Of a stretch of DNA of 64,000 nt, positions 3,963-33,400 are shown one piece after another. This DNA is from a virus (lineage: Duplodnaviria; Caudoviricetes), in the IMG/VR virus record IMGVR_UViG_3300048606_000120, positions 32,001-96,000 of that record; one strand, 5' to 3'. Under the pieces are notes generated by a model. The model was given only the letters and a program-made list of their open reading frames with translations, was not told where the DNA came from and searched no databases. Within the stretch, counting starts at the first letter, position 1; each line of letters begins with the position of its first letter. The position numbers were made by a program, and so were the translations under genes.

Positions 3963-6911
3963 ATGGCTCCTGACGACGGCGAAATAACGGCTGAGGAGCG
4001 GATCAACGAGGTTGCTGGTCCTCGCGACGTCCTCATGAAGGCCTACTCGATTGGGCTGGAGAAGGCCGAGAAGCAGTCCTCGAGCTCGGCTGACAGCAGC
4101 GGCGTCGTGCAGATGGGGATTATCGCCGATGTCATCGAGCCTCCCTACGATCCACAGGTGTTGTGCAAGCTGTACGAGCACAGCAGCTCGCTGCGGCAAA
4201 ACGTCGATGCCTACGCAACCAACATCGACGGGTTCGGGCACGTGTTCGAGCCGTTAGTTGAGCTGAAGGAGGCGGGCGCTCGCGAGCTCGTGGCGGACGC
4301 GATTTACCTCGAGCGATCGCAGGCGATCAATGAAGGCGTTTTGGGGTCAATCCTGACCACGAATCCTCCGAGCGAAGCGGAGGTCTCGAAGAAGATCGAA
4401 GATCTTCGCTACCAGATGCGGGTCGAGAAGGCTCGGATCGACAGCTTCTTCGAGAACTGCGTTGCTGAGGAGAGCTTCACCCGATTGCGTCGCAAAACGC
4501 GAGAAGACATCGAGGTCACTGGCAACGGTTATTGGGAGGTCATCCGCAACGACTCGGGACAGATCTCGCAGTTCGCCCACATGCCAAGTCGATCCGTGCG
4601 GGTGATGAAGGAAAAGAGCCCGTCCATCAGCGTCACTCAGCCGATCCGCGTCAGCTTGCTGTTGTTCCGACACGAGACATTCAAACGACGTTTTCGCCGC
4701 TACGTTCAGATCGGCGACGAGCACGCGTGGTTCAAGGAGTTCGGCGATCCGACGGTCGTGTCGAACAAGACCGGCAAATCGTTCGAAAACGTCGAAGCTT
4801 TGCGAGCAGTCGAGGGAAGTGCTCAGCCGGCAAACGAGGTTTTCCACTTCAAGATTCCCAGCCTGAAAAACGGGTCGTACGGCGTACCGCGGTGGATCGG
4901 TAACCTGCTTTCGGTGCTCGGCTCGCGCAGTGCTGAAGAGGTGAACCTCGCCTATTTCGACAACAAGTCGATCCCGCCGATGGCGATCCTCGTGTCGGGT
5001 GGTCGCTTGGGCAGTGACTCGGTGAAGCGCATCGAGAGCTTTGTCGAGACTCAACTGAAGGGCCGCAAGAACTACCACAAGATCCTCGTCATCGAAGCTG
5101 AGACAACTGCAGGCTCGATCGGTTTGGCCGACAACAACGGCTCGATGCGAGTCGAGATCAAGATGCTGACCGACGCGCAACTCAAGGACGGCTTGTTCCT
5201 CGCTTACGACGCGGCGAACATGGACAAAGTCGGCATGGGGTTCCGGTTACCGCGCTTGCTTCGTGGTGACATTCGAGATTTTAACCGCGCTTGCTACAGC
5301 GCCGACACGGAAACGCTGACAGAGAACGGTTGGAAGTTGCATCACGAGATTGCGTCAGACGAGCGCATCGCCGTGTTCGATCCGAAAGCTTGCGAGCTCA
5401 GGTTCGAAGTGCCGTCTGCAAAGCATGTCTACGATGTCGACGAAAACCTGTACCGGTTCAACAGCCAGCACATCGATGCGAACGTGACTGCAAATCATAC
5501 GATGTTGGTTCGCTGCCCGGGGCGAGGATGGACATTTGAAGCCGCGGCAGATACCGCTACACGGTCGCGGTTCGAAGTGATGTGTGCGCCCGAGGTCGAC
5601 TCGCACGGTGAGACGATTGGCAAGTTCGTTTTACCCAAGCAGTGCCAGATCGAACGGGGCCATTCTCACGGCCCGATCGCAGGCGACGATTGGCTCGAGT
5701 TTTTGGGGTATTTTCTTTCAGACGGCGGCCTGCTCGAAACAGACAACCCGGCAGCGGAATACCTAGTCTTCATTCGGCAGCAGAAAGAGCCGTGCCGGTC
5801 GAAGATGCAGGCTTGTTTGGACCGCATCGGGTGGGCGTATTCGATTCAGATCAAGGCAGACGGCGCCAATGTCTTCTGCATCTCGAATCGTTGCCTGCGA
5901 GGGTGGTTGCTCGAACATTGCGGGGGTCGTTCTGCGGGTCGTCACATGCCGGCTGGGTATGCGACTGGCTTGCCGCGTGCTCAGCTCAAGATTCTGTGGC
6001 AAGCGATGCTTTTGGGCGACGGCTCGTGTGGAAAACAGTCGACAAACGGCAGCTACTATTCTGCTTCACGAGCGCTGATTGACGACGTGCAGATCGTCGC
6101 TCTCAGGCTCGGGTTGCGCTCTCTCATTCGCTGGGCACCGAACGCGCACGTGTTCCAGCTCGGCTGGTCCACATGGAAGACAACTCAATTGAAGGATTTT
6201 CACGTCGAGGCTGAGCGCTACAAGGGCGAGGTCTTTTGCTTCACATGTCCGGGAGCAGGGTTCTTCGTTACACGCCGCAACGGGAAAATCGCGATCCAGG
6301 GTAACAGTGCAGAAGCGGCGTTGGACTTTGCCGAGTCTCAAGTGTTCGTGCCGGAGCGCAACGACTTCGATTTCACGATGAACCGCTTCATCCTGGCGAG
6401 CTTCGGCATTCGCTATTGGCGCTTCAAGAGCAATGGTCCGCGCCTGAGTGATGCGCAGAGCTGGGGCGAGATGATCGTGAAGCTCACGAACGCGGGAGTC
6501 TTGGTGCCTGCCGATGCTCGCGAGCTCACGAGCAAGAAGGTGCTCGCCCAAGAGCTACCCGTCATCAAAGCCGACTGGGTCAATCAGCCGCTTAGCCTGA
6601 CGATCGCTGGCATTCAAGCGGACAACGCTCTTGATGGTGAGATTCCGATGGCCGTCAGTGGCCCGAGCGGCTCGAGCGGTACCAACGATCAGGGCATCGG
6701 AGTGACGCCGACTCCGAGCTTGCTGAAGGCAGCGAAGGATAAGCTCATGCGCAAGGCGAAGAGCCTCGTGAAGCTGCGCAACGAGTTCTTGAAGCAGCAA
6801 GCCGTCGAAGCCGTGAAAGAGTACCAGGACGAGCGCGTCGACGAAGGCGAGATCGTGTTTCAGATGAGCGCTGCTGAGATGGAGGAGCACTTCGGGATCA
6901 AGCCTCAGTGA
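3963..6911 (+). CDS. Portal protein (PBSX/XkdE-like) containing an intein
   Basis: IEPPYD, TGNGYWEVIRN, YGVPRWIG, N.AYFDN..IP; the exteins rejoin as DFNRA|SAEAA. Confidence 0.92.
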   Translation: MAPDDGEITAEERINEVAGPRDVLMKAYSIGLEKAEKQSSSSADSSGVVQMGIIADVIEPPYDPQVLCKLYEHSSSLRQNVDAYATNIDGFGHVFEPLVELKEAGARELVADAIYLERSQAINEGVLGSILTTNPPSEAEVSKKIEDLRYQMRVEKARIDSFFENCVAEESFTRLRRKTREDIEVTGNGYWEVIRNDSGQISQFAHMPSRSVRVMKEKSPSISVTQPIRVSLLLFRHETFKRRFRRYVQIGDEHAWFKEFGDPTVVSNKTGKSFENVEALRAVEGSAQPANEVFHFKIPSLKNGSYGVPRWIGNLLSVLGSRSAEEVNLAYFDNKSIPPMAILVSGGRLGSDSVKRIESFVETQLKGRKNYHKILVIEAETTAGSIGLADNNGSMRVEIKMLTDAQLKDGLFLAYDAANMDKVGMGFRLPRLLRGDIRDFNRACYSADTETLTENGWKLHHEIASDERIAVFDPKACELRFEVPSAKHVYDVDENLYRFNSQHIDANVTANHTMLVRCPGRGWTFEAAADTATRSRFEVMCAPEVDSHGETIGKFVLPKQCQIERGHSHGPIAGDDWLEFLGYFLSDGGLLETDNPAAEYLVFIRQQKEPCRSKMQACLDRIGWAYSIQIKADGANVFCISNRCLRGWLLEHCGGRSAGRHMPAGYATGLPRAQLKILWQAMLLGDGSCGKQSTNGSYYSASRALIDDVQIVALRLGLRSLIRWAPNAHVFQLGWSTWKTTQLKDFHVEAERYKGEVFCFTCPGAGFFVTRRNGKIAIQGNSAEAALDFAESQVFVPERNDFDFTMNRFILASFGIRYWRFKSNGPRLSDAQSWGEMIVKLTNAGVLVPADARELTSKKVLAQELPVIKADWVNQPLSLTIAGIQADNALDGEIPMAVSGPSGSSGTNDQGIGVTPTPSLLKAAKDKLMRKAKSLVKLRNEFLKQQAVEAVKEYQDERVDEGEIVFQMSAAEMEEHFGIKPQ
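5292..6305 (+). mobile_element. Intein with LAGLIDADG-type homing endonuclease, in the portal
   Basis: Begins CYSADTETLTENGW, block B VTANH, endonuclease blocks FLGYFLSDG and AMLLGDG, ends IAIQGN followed by Ser at +1. Confidence 0.93.
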
Positions 6912-8989
6912 GGCGGCAGCAGCCCACGATTGCAGATGGCATCCGGGCAGCGGAAGATTTGGCGTCGGCGCTGCTCGGCTTCAGCGTTCACAAGGCGACT
7001 GACCCGATGTCACCGAGTGGGTTCTTGCTGATCGGCAAGGCTGTCTCCGAGAAGCTGAAGGGGGCCGTCAAAGGAGCTGAGGCAGACGCGGTCGCCGGCG
7101 TCATTCACAAGCTCGGGTTCGACTGGGCGAAGCTCTCTCCAGAAGCTGCGACGCGCGCGATGGATGCCGTCAATCAGGCGATCGGGGCCTCCTACGAGGC
7201 GAAGGTCATGCCCAAGATCGACGGCGTGTTGGAGATCGAAGGTCCCAAGGTTATGAAGGGGACCAAGAAGTCGATTGCAGTGCGCGAGAAGTTCGCGATC
7301 GCTACGAGCCTCGCTCAACGCGATCTGCAGGCAGAGAAGGCGATTCGCAAGCAGCAAGTGAACTTTATCCGTAACTCGAGCGGCGACCGCATCGCGACTG
7401 CATCGGTCAAAGCTCGGTCGATTGTCGCTCGTGGTGTGCGCGACGGAGTCGGAACTGATTTGATCGCTAAAAACCTGCATTCGCACTTCCTCGAGAACGT
7501 TCCGAGGCCGGAGTCCTATTGGCGAGTGGTGGCCGATGCATTTGTCGGCCGAGCTCGCACGACTTCGCAGGTCTATTCGTACGAGGATTCTGGAGTCGAG
7601 ACGATCGAGATCGTCGCAGTGCTCGATGAGGTGACCACCGACCAATGCCGCTTCATGGACGGCAAAGTCTTCACGATCCAGTCGGCGCGCGCTCTGCTCG
7701 ATACGCTGGGTTCGCTCGAGGAGCCGGAGGATGTGAAGTTCGCAGCGCCGTGGATTCGCAAAGGTCGTGATGAGCAAGGCGGTGGGATGCGCTTGTTCGT
7801 ACCGCATTCCGACGGCTCGACTACGACGATCGCGAAGATCGATCGCAGCGGCATTGGCAGTGCCGATGACAGGGGCCAGTTTTCAGGCGGAAAGAACTCA
7901 GCAGATCTCGCAAAGCTTGGCTCCTCGATGCCGCCCTACCATGGCCGTTGCCGAACAACGACAGTAGCTGCATCGGAGTCAGGCCAATCAGCGCCGGTGA
8001 TGGTGCCGGGCGCCGATCTTCAGGTTCCTGTCGCAGCTCCTGTCGAAGAGGCTCCCTCTCTTCCGCCAGAGGCGGAGATCCCAGATTGGATGACTGCTGA
8101 TGAGCTCAATGTGGTGTCGCAACGGCGAATCGACGGCGGCATGACCGGTGCTCGACAGCTGACGATCAAAGATGCGGACGGCGTCGAACAGCGTGCGGTG
8201 TGGAAAGCAGTCTCGGGCGAAGACGTCGGCGAGGTGCTTCGCAGGGGGGTTCAAGCCGGCACCTACTACCAGCGGGAGGGCGCCGCCTATCAGCTCGATT
8301 CGATGCTCGGCGGAGAGACGGTCGTTCCTCCGACGGTGAGCCGGAAGCATAAGGCATGGAGCAACGCTCACTTTCAAGAGGAAGGTAGTTTGCAGGCGTT
8401 TGTACAAGGGGCGAAGCCGACATCCAATGTTGATTGGAAGAAAGATGCCGGTGGTAAGAGTGCAAACGTGCTTGGCGCCGAGCTTGAACAGAAGCTGGCC
8501 AATGACCCGACCGTGCGTCGGCAGTTTTTGCTCGACGTGATCATGGCGAACGATGACCGCCATTCGGAGAACACTCTGTGGCGCACGGTCGGCGACTCGA
8601 TAAAGCCGGTCGCGATCGACAACGGGTTGAGCTTTCCCGAAAAACCGTGCCGATTTCTTTTCGCAGTGGAGAACTCAACAGAGTTGAAGAAGACGTTACT
8701 GACGTTCGACGAGGGCAGCATTGCGCATCTTGCGAAGCTCGATGTTGAGCGGGTTGCGACGCTGCTGAAGGGGTATGACGGCATCACCGAGACCCAGATC
8801 ACTGCAACTCTCGGCCGCATCCGAGCGTTGCAGAACAACTCGGGCACTCTGGCAGCCGGCGCTCAGTCATGGGAACAGCCGCAAGACACTGTATACTTTT
8901 GGCTTACACGTACTCCAGCAGAACGTGCTAAGCTAGGGGAGTTGACCGATGCCGACTTGGCAGAGATCACGAAACTCGCGAAGCGATGA
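6908..8989 (+). CDS. MuF / SPP1 gp7-like head morphogenesis protein with a C-terminal PI3/4-kinase/HipA-like domain
   Basis: AVLDEVTTDQCRFMDGK and PPYHGRCRTT (MuF); Pro/Glu linker; then AVWK, REGAAYQLD, VVPPT, GSLQAFV, NDDRHSEN, AIDNGLSF. Confidence 0.88.
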   Translation: MRRQQPTIADGIRAAEDLASALLGFSVHKATDPMSPSGFLLIGKAVSEKLKGAVKGAEADAVAGVIHKLGFDWAKLSPEAATRAMDAVNQAIGASYEAKVMPKIDGVLEIEGPKVMKGTKKSIAVREKFAIATSLAQRDLQAEKAIRKQQVNFIRNSSGDRIATASVKARSIVARGVRDGVGTDLIAKNLHSHFLENVPRPESYWRVVADAFVGRARTTSQVYSYEDSGVETIEIVAVLDEVTTDQCRFMDGKVFTIQSARALLDTLGSLEEPEDVKFAAPWIRKGRDEQGGGMRLFVPHSDGSTTTIAKIDRSGIGSADDRGQFSGGKNSADLAKLGSSMPPYHGRCRTTTVAASESGQSAPVMVPGADLQVPVAAPVEEAPSLPPEAEIPDWMTADELNVVSQRRIDGGMTGARQLTIKDADGVEQRAVWKAVSGEDVGEVLRRGVQAGTYYQREGAAYQLDSMLGGETVVPPTVSRKHKAWSNAHFQEEGSLQAFVQGAKPTSNVDWKKDAGGKSANVLGAELEQKLANDPTVRRQFLLDVIMANDDRHSENTLWRTVGDSIKPVAIDNGLSFPEKPCRFLFAVENSTELKKTLLTFDEGSIAHLAKLDVERVATLLKGYDGITETQITATLGRIRALQNNSGTLAAGAQSWEQPQDTVYFWLTRTPAERAKLGELTDADLAEITKLAKR

Positions 8990-9234
8990 AGCAGCTCGTC
9001 CAAATTGATCCCGAGACCTATGAGCGACAGGCAGTCATTTGCACGTTCGCTCTCGAGGATGAGCGGGTTGTGGTGTCGCCAGCAGAGGCTCTGGAGATGC
9101 GGCCGCATCTCGCGAAGCTCGCCTACGGCGGCGAGATCCTGACTCCTGAAGATGGGGCTGCGTACTACGACGTCCTCGAGAAGGCGGTACGCGGCAGCTA
9201 TTTCTTCGTCGAGAAAGTTCCGAGCGAGGAATGA
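8986..9234 (+). CDS. Small acidic protein, candidate immunity protein for the MuF kinase domain
   Basis: 82 aa, ATGA overlap with the MuF stop; function inferred from position only. Confidence 0.55.
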   Translation: MKQLVQIDPETYERQAVICTFALEDERVVVSPAEALEMRPHLAKLAYGGEILTPEDGAAYYDVLEKAVRGSYFFVEKVPSEE

Positions 9235-10419: not shown

Positions 10420-11157
10420 GTGGAAGAGACAGCCGAGGAGAGCTACAGGGCTGCCATTGCGGCTGCCGTGGCTCTTGAAAAAGACGGGGCCGATACGGTT
10501 GTTATCGAGGCTGGAGATTCCTTCGATCTCGACGCTGCGATCACGAAAGCAGAGCAAGTCGGCCCGTCTTGGTTGATCGAGATTCCCGTGTTCGGCGCTG
10601 TGCTCGAGCATCTCGCGAAGCTTGCTGGAGTGTCTGTCTTCCACGTCGATGATGTGCCAGGCAGCTTGTTCGCAACGACTGAGAAGCTCGCTCCGGGGAA
10701 GAGTTCTGTAATCGTCGCTGACGGCGTGATCGGCGTGCCCGCGCCCGAGAAAGCTCCCGACCAGCAAGATGAACCGAGTGGCCCTCGAGTGACAAAGCTG
10801 CTGAAGACAGCAGAGGAGCGGTTTGTTCTCGGAATCGTGCTCGTGCCTGAAGAGCGTGACTCGCAAGGCGACATCTACTCGCACGATGAGGTGCGGAAGG
10901 CCGCGCACGAGTACATGGAGAAGGCTGGTCATTTGGGGAAGCAGCACTCGGAGATCGTTACTGGGAAGCTGAAGATCCTCGAGACATTCGTTGCGCCCGC
11001 TGAGTTCACGCAAGACGAAGTCACGATCGCAAAGGGAACTTGGTTGATGGGCATCCGAGTCGTCGACGACGAGCTGTGGAGCGACGTGAAGAAGGGTGCG
11101 TTCACAGGCTTCTCGATCGGCGGCGCTGCTCACCGGGCTCCCGAGCAGGCGGCGTGA
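10420..11157 (+). CDS. XkdF-like prohead serine protease
   Basis: VLGIVLVPEERDSQGD, AAHEYM, KQH, GTWLMG, LWSDVKKGAFTGFSIGG. Confidence 0.9.
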   Translation: MEETAEESYRAAIAAAVALEKDGADTVVIEAGDSFDLDAAITKAEQVGPSWLIEIPVFGAVLEHLAKLAGVSVFHVDDVPGSLFATTEKLAPGKSSVIVADGVIGVPAPEKAPDQQDEPSGPRVTKLLKTAEERFVLGIVLVPEERDSQGDIYSHDEVRKAAHEYMEKAGHLGKQHSEIVTGKLKILETFVAPAEFTQDEVTIAKGTWLMGIRVVDDELWSDVKKGAFTGFSIGGAAHRAPEQAA

Positions 11158-30802: not shown

Positions 30803-33400
30803 ATGGCGCTGATGAAGATCGATCAGGCGGGCTTGTCAGCAGGCGTCGCTGGAAGGGCTCGGAACGACGGCCTGAGCGATGGGTCACTTGTGACCCTGAC
30901 CGACATGACGCCGGGCGGCAGTACGCTGTTCGAGCTGTTGTGGGCCCATCCTGAAGACACAACTTCGGTGCTTTCGTTGGCGCCGACAGTTGATCCGCAT
31001 GTCTGGACGTTCTCACCCACAGAAGCCGTGGGAGTTGGCTACGGCTTTCGGATTCGCCTGACGCACACGACAAACATCGGAGTCGTCACAACGCAGACGA
31101 GGATTTTCGGCATCCCGGATGGGCTCGGAGTCGTGAAGCCGATCCCTGGCGAGCGCTCAGACCCAAACGCGACGATCGCGAATGCGACTGATTCGGCGGT
31201 CATCGCGAGGTGCGAGCGCAACTGGCCAACCACTGGCTATCCGCTCGGCAACCCATTCGGATGGGGGCCTGAGCTGATCGAGCTGATCGAGTCGGCGACG
31301 GGTGGTCTGACGGCTCCTCAGCGCAACGCGATTCAAGCCGGCGACGTGCCGACGGACCTGAACCCGTTCATCACGATTAGTCATCTTGCAAAGCTCGGGA
31401 CTAGCGTCATCTCGCTCACTGATCAGCGATTTGGTTGGCCTGGGCACGCCACCAACATTGGCCCGTACCTGCAGGCTGCGATTGCTTACGCGATTGCACA
31501 TCGCATCGGAACGATCGAGCTGCCCGCAGGGTTGCTCATCTGCGATCGCCAGATAGTGGTGCCGCCTGCACCAGGGCCCGACGGCTTCAACCACGCAATC
31601 ATGATCCGCGGCCAGGGACGCGAGCAGACTTACATCTATTTCTACAATCACACCGGTGGCTTTCGGCTCGAAGGCACAATCGACAGCAGTGGGATGTACT
31701 ACTTCGGCGGCGGCTTGCGCGATCTCGCGCTCGTCGGGGTCTATGACGACGGCAGTCCGGCGGGCACACACAACGGCGTCGAGATGTTCGAGTGCATTTT
31801 CACGATGCTCGACAACGTGCACATCCGCGGCTTCAATGGATACGGCCTTTTCCTCGACAACATCTGGCCCAACGGCCAGCAAGATCTGCACTTCAGCAAC
31901 TGCCACATTCAGCTAAACCGAGCCGGTGGCATTTGGTGTAACTCGGTCCAACAGGCCGTGTTCAGCAACATGCAGATCAACCAGAACCTCGGCGATGGCG
32001 TGACATTCACATCTGGCAACAACGGCATCGCTTGGGTTGGCGGCTTATTCCAGAACGAGGGTCGCGCCATGCGCTTTACGCGGCGTGACGAGCCAGGCGA
32101 TGAGCAAGACGGCGAGCTAGCCATCAACATGTCGATGTACGGCTCGGTATACGTCGAACAGATTGATTTGGATGTACCGCTCTTCGATTTTGAAGAGCCA
32201 GCTGGCTCGAGTGAGTTCAATATGTTCGGGTCGCTGGTGGTTCAAGGCGGCTCACTAACCACCCCAGTCTTTCGATTCGAAGGTAACTACGCTGTGGTGG
32301 TGGCTGGAAAGATCCACGCAGCTGGCTGGAGCAAACATATTCAGGCCGTCAACCTCGCCGAGTTCACGGGCATAGGCCTGCAGAGCGGCAGCGACTACTA
32401 CGACTTCGACACCATCTCGCAAGCCAACGCCACGTTCATCGGCCGCGGAGGTCTATGTGTGGGCGCTGCCGCGCCCGCGGGCGATCGCGTTGCGCTTTAC
32501 AAGCCGTTGCAGCTCATGGAGCTGACGACTGGCCACGAGCCGGCTCTCAAAGGCGTGATCTACGACACTGCTCTCAACAAGTTGCGCTTCAGTCCTGACG
32601 GCACGCTGTGGTACACACTGTCAGTCGATCCGTTCAACCTCGCGATCGATCTCGCTCCGTATCTCGCCGAGTTCTGGGACGCTACGAGCGCGGCTGACTC
32701 AGGGGGCGCTCTCAGTGCATGGGTTGGCAGCTTCCATGCGACTCCATTCACATGGTCGGGCACGCCACCTACAGTCACGACATCTGCAGAGCTCAACGGC
32801 CAGAAGGTGGTCAAGTTCTCCAAGGCCAGCAGCATGTGGGTCGACACTGGCACGCTGACCGGCGGGGGCATTCTACCAGGTACATCCAACGACACTCCGT
32901 ATGCTGTGACCGTCCTGTGCCGTACGCCGCTCGGAGCTACCTCTGACCTCGATGTCATCAGCCAGCTGAGCGACGCGAACAACGATCAATTGGAACTGAA
33001 GGTGTGGGGCAACGGCGCAGCCGCCGATACGTTCCAAACTCGCGTCCAAGATCACATCGGAGGGGGAGGCGACTCTGGCAACCTCGCGATCGGGAACGTC
33101 GCCCCTGCTGGTCACATGGTCGAGTACATGCTGTCCGACTACCCGACTCCAGGCACTGTCAAGAACGTCATCACGATCGACCAAGGCGCCCCGCCGGCAA
33201 TGAATAACTTCCCGTCCACCAAGATCGGCCCCATCACTCGCGTGCTTTTGGGCAACAACCTCTTGGGGGACGCCACTCATCCGGCCGACGTCGAAGTCGG
33301 GCTCCATCTTGTGTGTCATACTCGCCCGCCCGCGAGCATCCGGGCGCGGTTCTATCAGTACATCCAGCAGCGTTTCGGGATCGATATAGCTGGCGTCTGA
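30803..33400 (+). CDS. Tail spike/fibre with right-handed beta-helix (pectate-lyase-like) and C-terminal lectin-like domain
   Basis: LQAAI...GTIELPAG...IRGQG; repeating N/G-rich beta-helix rungs. Confidence 0.8.
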   Translation: MALMKIDQAGLSAGVAGRARNDGLSDGSLVTLTDMTPGGSTLFELLWAHPEDTTSVLSLAPTVDPHVWTFSPTEAVGVGYGFRIRLTHTTNIGVVTTQTRIFGIPDGLGVVKPIPGERSDPNATIANATDSAVIARCERNWPTTGYPLGNPFGWGPELIELIESATGGLTAPQRNAIQAGDVPTDLNPFITISHLAKLGTSVISLTDQRFGWPGHATNIGPYLQAAIAYAIAHRIGTIELPAGLLICDRQIVVPPAPGPDGFNHAIMIRGQGREQTYIYFYNHTGGFRLEGTIDSSGMYYFGGGLRDLALVGVYDDGSPAGTHNGVEMFECIFTMLDNVHIRGFNGYGLFLDNIWPNGQQDLHFSNCHIQLNRAGGIWCNSVQQAVFSNMQINQNLGDGVTFTSGNNGIAWVGGLFQNEGRAMRFTRRDEPGDEQDGELAINMSMYGSVYVEQIDLDVPLFDFEEPAGSSEFNMFGSLVVQGGSLTTPVFRFEGNYAVVVAGKIHAAGWSKHIQAVNLAEFTGIGLQSGSDYYDFDTISQANATFIGRGGLCVGAAAPAGDRVALYKPLQLMELTTGHEPALKGVIYDTALNKLRFSPDGTLWYTLSVDPFNLAIDLAPYLAEFWDATSAADSGGALSAWVGSFHATPFTWSGTPPTVTTSAELNGQKVVKFSKASSMWVDTGTLTGGGILPGTSNDTPYAVTVLCRTPLGATSDLDVISQLSDANNDQLELKVWGNGAAADTFQTRVQDHIGGGGDSGNLAIGNVAPAGHMVEYMLSDYPTPGTVKNVITIDQGAPPAMNNFPSTKIGPITRVLLGNNLLGDATHPADVEVGLHLVCHTRPPASIRARFYQYIQQRFGIDIAGV

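Follow-up and report, generated by a model that had tools for sequence, protein, structure and literature searches.

Why should the head protein of a phage end in a kinase, and why should a small acidic protein be encoded immediately behind it? The question is raised by a locus in a virus of the Caudoviricetes (IMG/VR record IMGVR_UViG_3300048606_000120), of which a stretch of 64,000 nucleotides, positions 32,001 to 96,000 of the record, was analysed and is referred to here as the window. The record is complete, at 109,517 bp, and the coordinates below follow the 64-kb numbering of the window. The gene in question encodes a 693-aa protein in which a MuF-type head morphogenesis region is joined through a linker to a C-terminal kinase domain, and its end overlaps the gene of an 82-aa acidic protein, hereafter the partner (Table 1). 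We propose, from the comparisons described below, that this MuF-kinase fusion is probably a virion-borne effector kinase, and that the coupled small protein acts as its guardian.

The C-terminal domain is specifically type II phosphatidylinositol (PI) 4-kinase-like and not HipA-like. The first-pass annotation had called it 'PI3/4-kinase/HipA-like', and this can be sharpened to 'type II PI4K-like' because both structure and profile comparisons single out PI4KII. An AlphaFold2 (AF2) model built from an alignment of 71 kinase-domain sequences (alignment A2) reached a predicted local distance difference test (pLDDT) score of 96.2 and a predicted template modelling (pTM) score of 0.94; prediction from the single sequence gave a pLDDT of only 38.7, and the alignment-based model was used throughout. 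PI4KIIalpha and PI4KIIbeta were the top matches to this model in a Foldseek search of the PDB (E = 2.9e-10, 23–25% identity). VIA-align, a second structure aligner independent of Foldseek, aligned residues 1–290 of the model to human PI4KIIalpha with a Z score of 20.5, covering 254 residues over both lobes at 3.5 Å and 24% identity. Other folds scored 13.4 (CtkA), 12.9 (Fam20), 12.5 (CotH), 12.0 (actin-fragmin kinase) and 10.8 (MavQ), and HipT and HipA, at 10.5–10.7, reached about half the PI4KII score.

Sequence profiles led to the same family. The A2 profile, compared with 177,635 PDB sequences, had PI4K2A and PI4K2B as its sole matches (E = 3.9e-15), and the match aligned the glycine-rich loop, the AVxKP lysine, the LDxIxxNxDRxxxNxL catalytic loop and the AIDNGLxFP segment. 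HipA chains were absent among the profile matches to PDB at E<=0.01, and no HipA Pfam family matched the window protein even at E<=10. The PI3/4-type part of the earlier assignment thus stood and the HipA part did not. A profile was required for this result, as a single-domain phmmer search of the PDB sequences returned nothing meaningful. A weak but significant match to TIGR03843 was also obtained (E = 2e-9, residues 28–204 of the domain, spanning the N-lobe and the catalytic loop); because its 37 bits fall far under the family cut-off of 172 bits, the window kinase is placed outside that family. The cysteine-rich CCPCC insert, which is the palmitoylated membrane anchor of PI4KII enzymes, is absent: the kinase domain has one cysteine (residue 581) and no cysteine cluster. 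Structural look-alikes occur in haloarchaeal viruses and in phages of mycobacteria and Gordonia. Proteins of similar fold carry the database label 'PI3K/PI4K catalytic domain-containing protein' in Halorubrum virus HSTV-2 and among uncultured Caudovirales head-morphogenesis proteins, and since such automatic labels exist, the occurrence of the kinase domain in viruses is already on record.

The AVWK lysine, REGAAY helix, DRHSEN catalytic loop and IDNG segment that the first-pass annotation had picked out all lie where it placed them, the catalytic loop to the exact nucleotide, and their key residues are invariant in the 71 aligned sequences. In domain numbering, the invariant positions are K39, R62, E63, P80, D149, D156, R157, H158, N161, D177 and R243; equivalents in the full protein are K433, R456, E457, D550-R-H, N555 and D571. 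From these residues, the C-terminal domain is predicted to be a catalytically competent kinase. A pseudokinase was considered and rejected, every catalytic residue being invariant among the 71 relatives.

The kinase family is large and nearly all metagenomic. An exhaustive HMMER search over 1.84 billion cluster representatives (clusters at 50% identity) retrieved 479 clusters at E<=1e-3, 90 at E<=1e-10 and 20 at E<=1e-30, and in most matches the kinase domain is C-terminal in a protein of 600–900 aa. Pfam PI3_PI4_kinase is matched by 49 of the 71 relatives and Phage_Mu_F by 27. No match to the kinase domain was found by tblastn at E<=0.01 in 50,697 cultured-phage records. A scan of genome contigs with one narrow peptide pattern, which is of little use for host range, found 14 distant cellular homologues.

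The N-terminal part is, as judged from its sequence, a MuF/gp7-type minor head protein and predicted to be portal-associated. The MuF region had been described as ending at PPYHGRCRTT, and the family matches bear this out: phrog_13868 covers residues 12–355 (E = 2.4e-51), TIGR01641 (the SPP1 gp7 domain) exceeds its cut-off of 39.65 with 43.3 bits, and several PHROGs labelled 'minor head protein / head morphogenesis' match the MuF core. The MuF gene stands directly downstream of the portal gene, as it does on four related contigs (L001, L002, L003 and L107). The Pro/Glu linker noted in the first reading is likewise present, with the Pro/Glu stretch proper at residues 374–394. When the full 693-aa protein was compared with the cultured-phage records by tblastn, it found matches through the MuF part only, in Rhizobium and Stenotrophomonas phages at 26–29% identity.

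What the 82-aa ORF accompanies, as a conserved and dedicated partner, is the kinase domain and not MuF. As the earlier reading had it, the ORF is acidic and overlaps the kinase stop codon; the isoelectric point (pI) of its product is 4.5, with 16 D+E vs 8 K+R. The protein has no Pfam, PHROG or NCBIfam match. Its distribution was followed in 80 viral loci encoding kinase relatives, with a hidden Markov model (HMM) built from four seeds and iterated over 5,105 ORFs of at least 40 aa. Every match at E<1e-8 adjoins a kinase-domain ORF. The partner stands beside the kinase in all 29 loci that hold a close full-length kinase and downstream DNA, at a distance of -65 to +41 nt and mostly with a 4-nt overlap with the kinase stop; in the two remaining close loci, which are without a partner, the sequence stops at or no more than 48 nt past the kinase gene. 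Altogether, 41 non-redundant kinase-partner pairs were collected.

Searches from the partner's side gave a similar picture. A context-blind profile search returned 11 proteins, none of them usefully annotated, and the partner homologues from it that were checked reciprocally (3 of 3) directly follow a kinase-domain gene. Further, the cultured phages with the closest MuF part, L338C and P11VFA of Rhizobium, encode MuF without the kinase and have no partner homologue, and the genome of the window holds exactly one kinase and one partner. A partner gene so dedicated to the kinase fits the idea of an inhibitor. The family is marked by an N-terminal hairpin-like segment, tF.L..g.kV, and by the motif PxDGxxFxDAL...GS. 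Its conservation is too low for locus searches from partner alignments; a degenerate DNA pattern recovered one known locus and a chance match (L105) that has no HMM match. The ESM Atlas held no usable look-alike of the partner, whose own model has a pLDDT of 0.49.

Unusual arrangements of the pair were also seen. On one contig (L006:4840-5094, minus strand) the partner gene is inverted: it runs towards the kinase gene, whose stop codon overlaps its own. Another locus (L085:4974-10749) has three tandem kinase genes, of 746, 482 and 590 aa, and then a single partner gene; these kinases have no Pfam-recognisable MuF, and the 142-kb metagenomic contig carries many small phage-like ORFs. Tandem kinase genes with one common partner also occur in L072, with two kinases, and in L053.

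Kinase and partner form a two-gene cassette that travels together across unrelated MuF backbones. Between the window and three relatives (L005, L003 and L010), the kinase is 45–49% identical and the partner 33–46%, and the N-terminal part only 15–17%; one of the three, L003, also departs from the window in its portal family, and its structural module is E217-like. The scaffolds that carry the cassette include divergent MuF types, portal-MuF fusions and an Flp-like scaffold resembling those of secreted toxins, and the pair also stands alone. A Gammaproteobacteria metagenome-assembled genome (L094) encodes a stand-alone 256-aa kinase followed by the partner, and L109 has a stand-alone 258-aa kinase followed by the partner, with GrpB adjoining. 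The kinase protein of L084 (425 aa) bears a 122-aa N-terminal extension without a Pfam match and is followed by the partner. An Flp-like N-terminus precedes the kinase in P0009 (L101), in which the partner gene follows and is truncated by the contig end. In P0035, an Flp-like leader, a PT-HINT pretoxin domain (E = 1.2e-25) and the kinase are combined, the last 43% identical over the matched stretch; this contig ends 275 nt past the gene, too short to show a partner gene.

Other proteins join the kinase to further enzymes or to copies of itself. An ADP-ribosyltransferase and the kinase occur on one MuF, in either order, in P0012 (L011) and P0016 (L022/L023), which appear to be dual-effector head proteins. 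P0070 combines the kinase with an inorganic-pyrophosphatase domain, and P0086 (1411 aa) has Portal_Mu, MuF and kinase in a single polypeptide. About four tandem kinase copies are found in two giant metagenomic proteins, P0088 (3184 aa, PI3_PI4_kinase 183.8 bits, with a DUF4347 domain) and in P0121 (1967 aa). These architectures are those of polymorphic toxins and of phage 'polyvalent proteins', and the position of the kinase behind PT-HINT and beside ADP-ribosyltransferase tips fits the status of an effector.

Two details of these loci were noted in passing. The stand-alone pair of L094 (L094:3902-8407) lies just upstream of genes for a VWA-domain protein and a MoxR-like AAA_5 ATPase, possibly a non-phage context. 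The 918-aa MuF-kinase of L107 (L107:1248-4004) has an Intein_splicing domain between its two parts, and the partner follows.

The proposed mechanism joins these elements. MuF/gp7 proteins are carried at the portal inside the capsid and exit with the DNA, and for this reason a kinase carried in the virion on MuF would be packaged at the portal and would enter the next host cell with the DNA. The single Portal_Mu-MuF-kinase chain of P0086 lends indirect support to this step. Once in the cell, the kinase may phosphorylate a host target in the first moments of infection, in the service of takeover, counter-defence or toxicity. Because phosphatidylinositol is absent from most bacteria, a protein target, or some other target that is not PI, would be expected. 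The ATGA overlap would couple synthesis of the partner to that of the kinase, and the partner would bind the kinase and keep the producing cell safe, as the immunity proteins of other MuF toxin tips do. Virion delivery, the substrate and the inhibitory role of the partner are the parts of this proposal that we infer.

Several observations weigh against the proposal. Both Pfam models fall short on the window protein itself: Phage_Mu_F (PF04233) scores 24.6 bits, under its cut-off of 29.6, and PI3_PI4_kinase (PF00454) scores 25.9 bits, just under 27.1, a cut-off exceeded in relatives (P0037, 35.7; P0048, 33.6; P0054, 32.7 bits). Among the more distant kinase loci, roughly half had no detected partner. 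The HMM of the partner was iterated over the very loci that it scored, with positional specificity, reciprocal look-ups and negative controls as safeguards. The correlation between pairwise kinase and partner identities, which supports the cassette (Mantel r 0.73, a value reached in 0 of 2000 permutations), is inflated by shared descent, and the test does not remove this effect. Finally, conservation of the partner extends as widely as that of the kinase, which would fit a cofactor or chaperone equally well.

This last point leads to the main rival. The partner could be an obligatory helper of the kinase rather than its inhibitor: a chaperone for folding or packaging, an activating subunit, or an adaptor for substrates, the last perhaps co-delivered. 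Strict co-inheritance and translational coupling with the kinase would be expected of such a protein, and in many cases an immunity protein diverges more quickly than its toxin, while the partner keeps a fixed PxDGxxFxDAL motif across the breadth of the kinase family. The single partner gene that serves three tandem kinases in L085 and two in L072 also favours a helper. Against it, the position, size, acidity and stop-start overlap of the gene are typical of the immunity genes that follow MuF and polymorphic toxin tips (PMC5576092). We regard the helper as somewhat unlikely, and the partner is most simply read as an immunity or inhibitor protein, with a chaperone, activator or adaptor role as the chief competitor.

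The nature of the substrate allows a second alternative, in which the kinase, after ejection, phosphorylates a lipid or glycolipid at the host membrane or envelope, for example contributing to genome entry or envelope remodelling, and is not a protein kinase. The nearest enzymes by both fold and sequence, PI4K2A and PI4K2B, are lipid kinases. In addition, haloarchaeal, mycobacterial and Gordonia hosts contain inositol lipids, and it is in their viruses and phages that structural look-alikes of the domain occur. The remaining structural neighbours, CtkA, Fam20C, CotH, actin-fragmin kinase and HipA, are protein kinases, however, and the domain has a single cysteine in place of the palmitoylated insert. 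The scarcity of phosphatidylinositol in bacteria also argues against a lipid substrate, and the phage is assigned to no host, as matches to its polymerase and capsid are scattered across many host groups. On balance, a lipid kinase seems unlikely.

Less probable still is a kinase that is never injected and acts only in the producing cell, on scaffold, portal, capsid or ejection proteins during phage assembly. Such a role would suit a domain that is encoded in the head module and fused to a morphogenesis protein, in P0086 even to the portal. It would not account for kinase-partner pairs outside head modules, namely those next to VWA and MoxR-like genes (L094), beside GrpB (L109) and on the Flp-like, non-phage scaffold of P0009/L101, nor for the kinase behind the PT-HINT domain of P0035; moreover, the closest cultured relatives build their heads with a kinase-less MuF. 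A persistence kinase of HipA type that acts on an aminoacyl-tRNA synthetase, with the partner as a HipS/HipB-like antitoxin, is very improbable, for the broad fold common to HipA/HipT and the weak, below-cut-off HipA_2 matches in 2 of 71 relatives and in the stand-alone kinase of L094 are set against a PI4KII Z score about twice as high, the missing profile matches, on which HipA family membership was rejected, and a partner that lies downstream rather than upstream and has no helix-turn-helix or HipS match.

The features of the locus are collected in Table 1. The GTG start of the MuF-kinase ORF overlaps the portal stop codon (CAGTGAG).

Table 1. Features of the MuF-kinase locus and neighbouring genes, in window coordinates
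Feature	Coordinates (nt)	Strand	Remarks
Portal gene	3963..6911	+	Pfam Phage_portal 46.7 bits; phrog_12 E = 1.5e-33; carries an intein
MuF-kinase fusion gene, 693 aa	6908..8989	+	open frame directly after the portal gene
MuF / SPP1 gp7-type head morphogenesis region, residues 1–355	6908..7972	+	phrog_13868, TIGR01641
PPYHGRCRTT, end of the MuF part, residues 342–351	7931..7960	+	
Pro/Ala/Glu-rich linker, residues 356–394	7973..8089	+	length and sequence vary among aligned homologues
Type II PI 4-kinase-like domain, residues 395–693 (299 aa)	8090..8986	+	AF2 model, structure alignment, profile vs PDB
K433, predicted ATP-binding lysine (AVWK, residues 430–433)	8204..8206	+	invariant in 71; aligns with the PI4K2A AVFKP lysine
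REGAAY helix motif, residues 456–461		+	
Catalytic loop D550-R-H-S-E-N555	8555..8572	+	D, R, H and N invariant in 71; aligns with PI4K2A TDRGNDN
IDNG (residues 570–573), predicted metal-binding D571, DFG equivalent	8615..8626	+	D invariant; AIDNGLxFP aligns with PI4K2A AIDNGLAFP
Acidic partner gene, 82 aa	8986..9234	+	ATG inside the ATGA that overlaps the MuF-kinase stop
ORF, 101 aa	9254..9559		between partner gene and prohead protease; no family match
ORF, 256 aa	9640..10410		between partner gene and prohead protease; no family match
Prohead protease, XkdF-type	10420..11157	+	Pfam Peptidase_S78_2 E = 5e-29
ORF, 315 aa	12082..13029		similar to phage capsid proteins

Full-length MuF-kinase homologues, of 682–702 aa, are encoded on L001, L002 and one more contig, and the order portal-MuF-small ORF-protease-capsid is common to all three. 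After the protease, L001 and L002 have an ORF of about 297 aa and then the major capsid gene. The positions of the 101-aa and 256-aa ORFs are filled in L001, L002 and the third relative by ORFs of similar size, a comparison made by size. The intein of the portal gene occupies positions 5292–6305 of the window (338 aa, C444 to N781, followed by Ser) and contains a LAGLIDADG_3 homing-endonuclease domain; the portal homologue of L001, of 655 aa, is intein-free and aligns on either side of the insertion. The 109,517-bp record has direct terminal repeats, and the genome encodes a tyrosine-integrase-like gene, which is consistent with a temperate phage.

Returning to the proposal of a virion-borne effector kinase with its guardian, a wider hypothesis is possible, which we put forward tentatively. 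The PI4KII-like kinase and its acidic partner of about 80 aa may constitute an undescribed effector-immunity family of prokaryotic conflict systems. Phages would load the kinase into the capsid on MuF, in some cases alongside an ADP-ribosyltransferase, and inject it so that a host target becomes phosphorylated, and bacteria would use the cassette on secreted polymorphic toxins; the eukaryotic type II PI 4-kinases may have their nearest relatives outside the eukaryotes, and possibly their source, among the kinases of this family. A protein or lipid kinase carried in the capsid would, if true, give phages phosphorylation as a further tool of takeover and counter-defence, in action as the DNA enters. 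Further, a PI4KII-type kinase has in the linked small protein a candidate for a natural and specific inhibitor, or for a helper, and the family provides concrete prokaryotic and viral relatives for tracing the origin of eukaryotic type II PI 4-kinases.

The MuF tips described to date are mainly nucleases, ADP-ribosyltransferases, peptidases and (p)ppApp synthetases. The word 'kinase' is absent from the founding paper on MuF toxins (PMC5576092). A P-loop, zeta-toxin-like kinase fused to MuF has been reported among polyvalent proteins, together with a truncated Ser/Thr/Tyr-type kinase that is set apart from the PI4KII-like kinase by its description only (PMC5512222). In the searchable literature, nothing relevant was found that connects a PI3/PI4-kinase with MuF, head morphogenesis or phage. 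The PI4KII-like MuF tip and its cognate small-protein family are thus not analysed in that literature, whereas the polymorphic-toxin and polyvalent theme itself is known.

The closest known systems are the MuF polymorphic toxins (Jamet et al., 2017; PMC5576092) and the MuF polyvalent proteins (Iyer et al., 2017; PMC5512222). The locus resembles them in the MuF/gp7 N-terminus encoded beside the portal gene, in the variable enzymatic C-terminal tip that follows a linker, in the small ORF immediately downstream and in the exchange of tip and small ORF between backbones. MuF toxins belong to temperate phages, with which the integrase-like gene agrees. The locus differs from them in its tip, a type II PI4K-like kinase, and in a partner family that is unnamed in Pfam, PHROGs and NCBIfam.

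Similar logic would link the phage kinase to T4 Alt, which like certain other phage enzymes is packaged in the capsid and injected, and to T7 gp0.7, as host-modifying enzymes at the onset of infection. T4 Alt acts at that stage, and T7 gp0.7 phosphorylates host proteins; the latter is made after entry and is not carried in the virion. No sequence or fold relationship of either enzyme to the phage kinase was seen. The T7 protein kinase has been cited as a precedent in the literature on polyvalent proteins (PMC5512222). The SCO1664 family (TIGR03843), which comprises bacterial PI3/4-kinase-like hypothetical proteins, is cellular and stand-alone, unlike the MuF-fused phage kinase.

By fold and motif, the counterparts of the phage kinase are the eukaryotic PI4K2A and PI4K2B (PDB 4hnd, 4pla and 4wtv), with which it has in common the G-rich loop, the AVxKP lysine, the xDRxxxN loop and the AIDNGLxFP segment. 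Its catalytic loop reads DRH, which we take to be the form found in PI3K and PI4KIII, as opposed to DRG in PI4KII. It is set apart from the eukaryotic enzymes by an identity of about 24% and a missing CCPCC insert, by its fusion to a capsid protein and by its pairing with a small partner.

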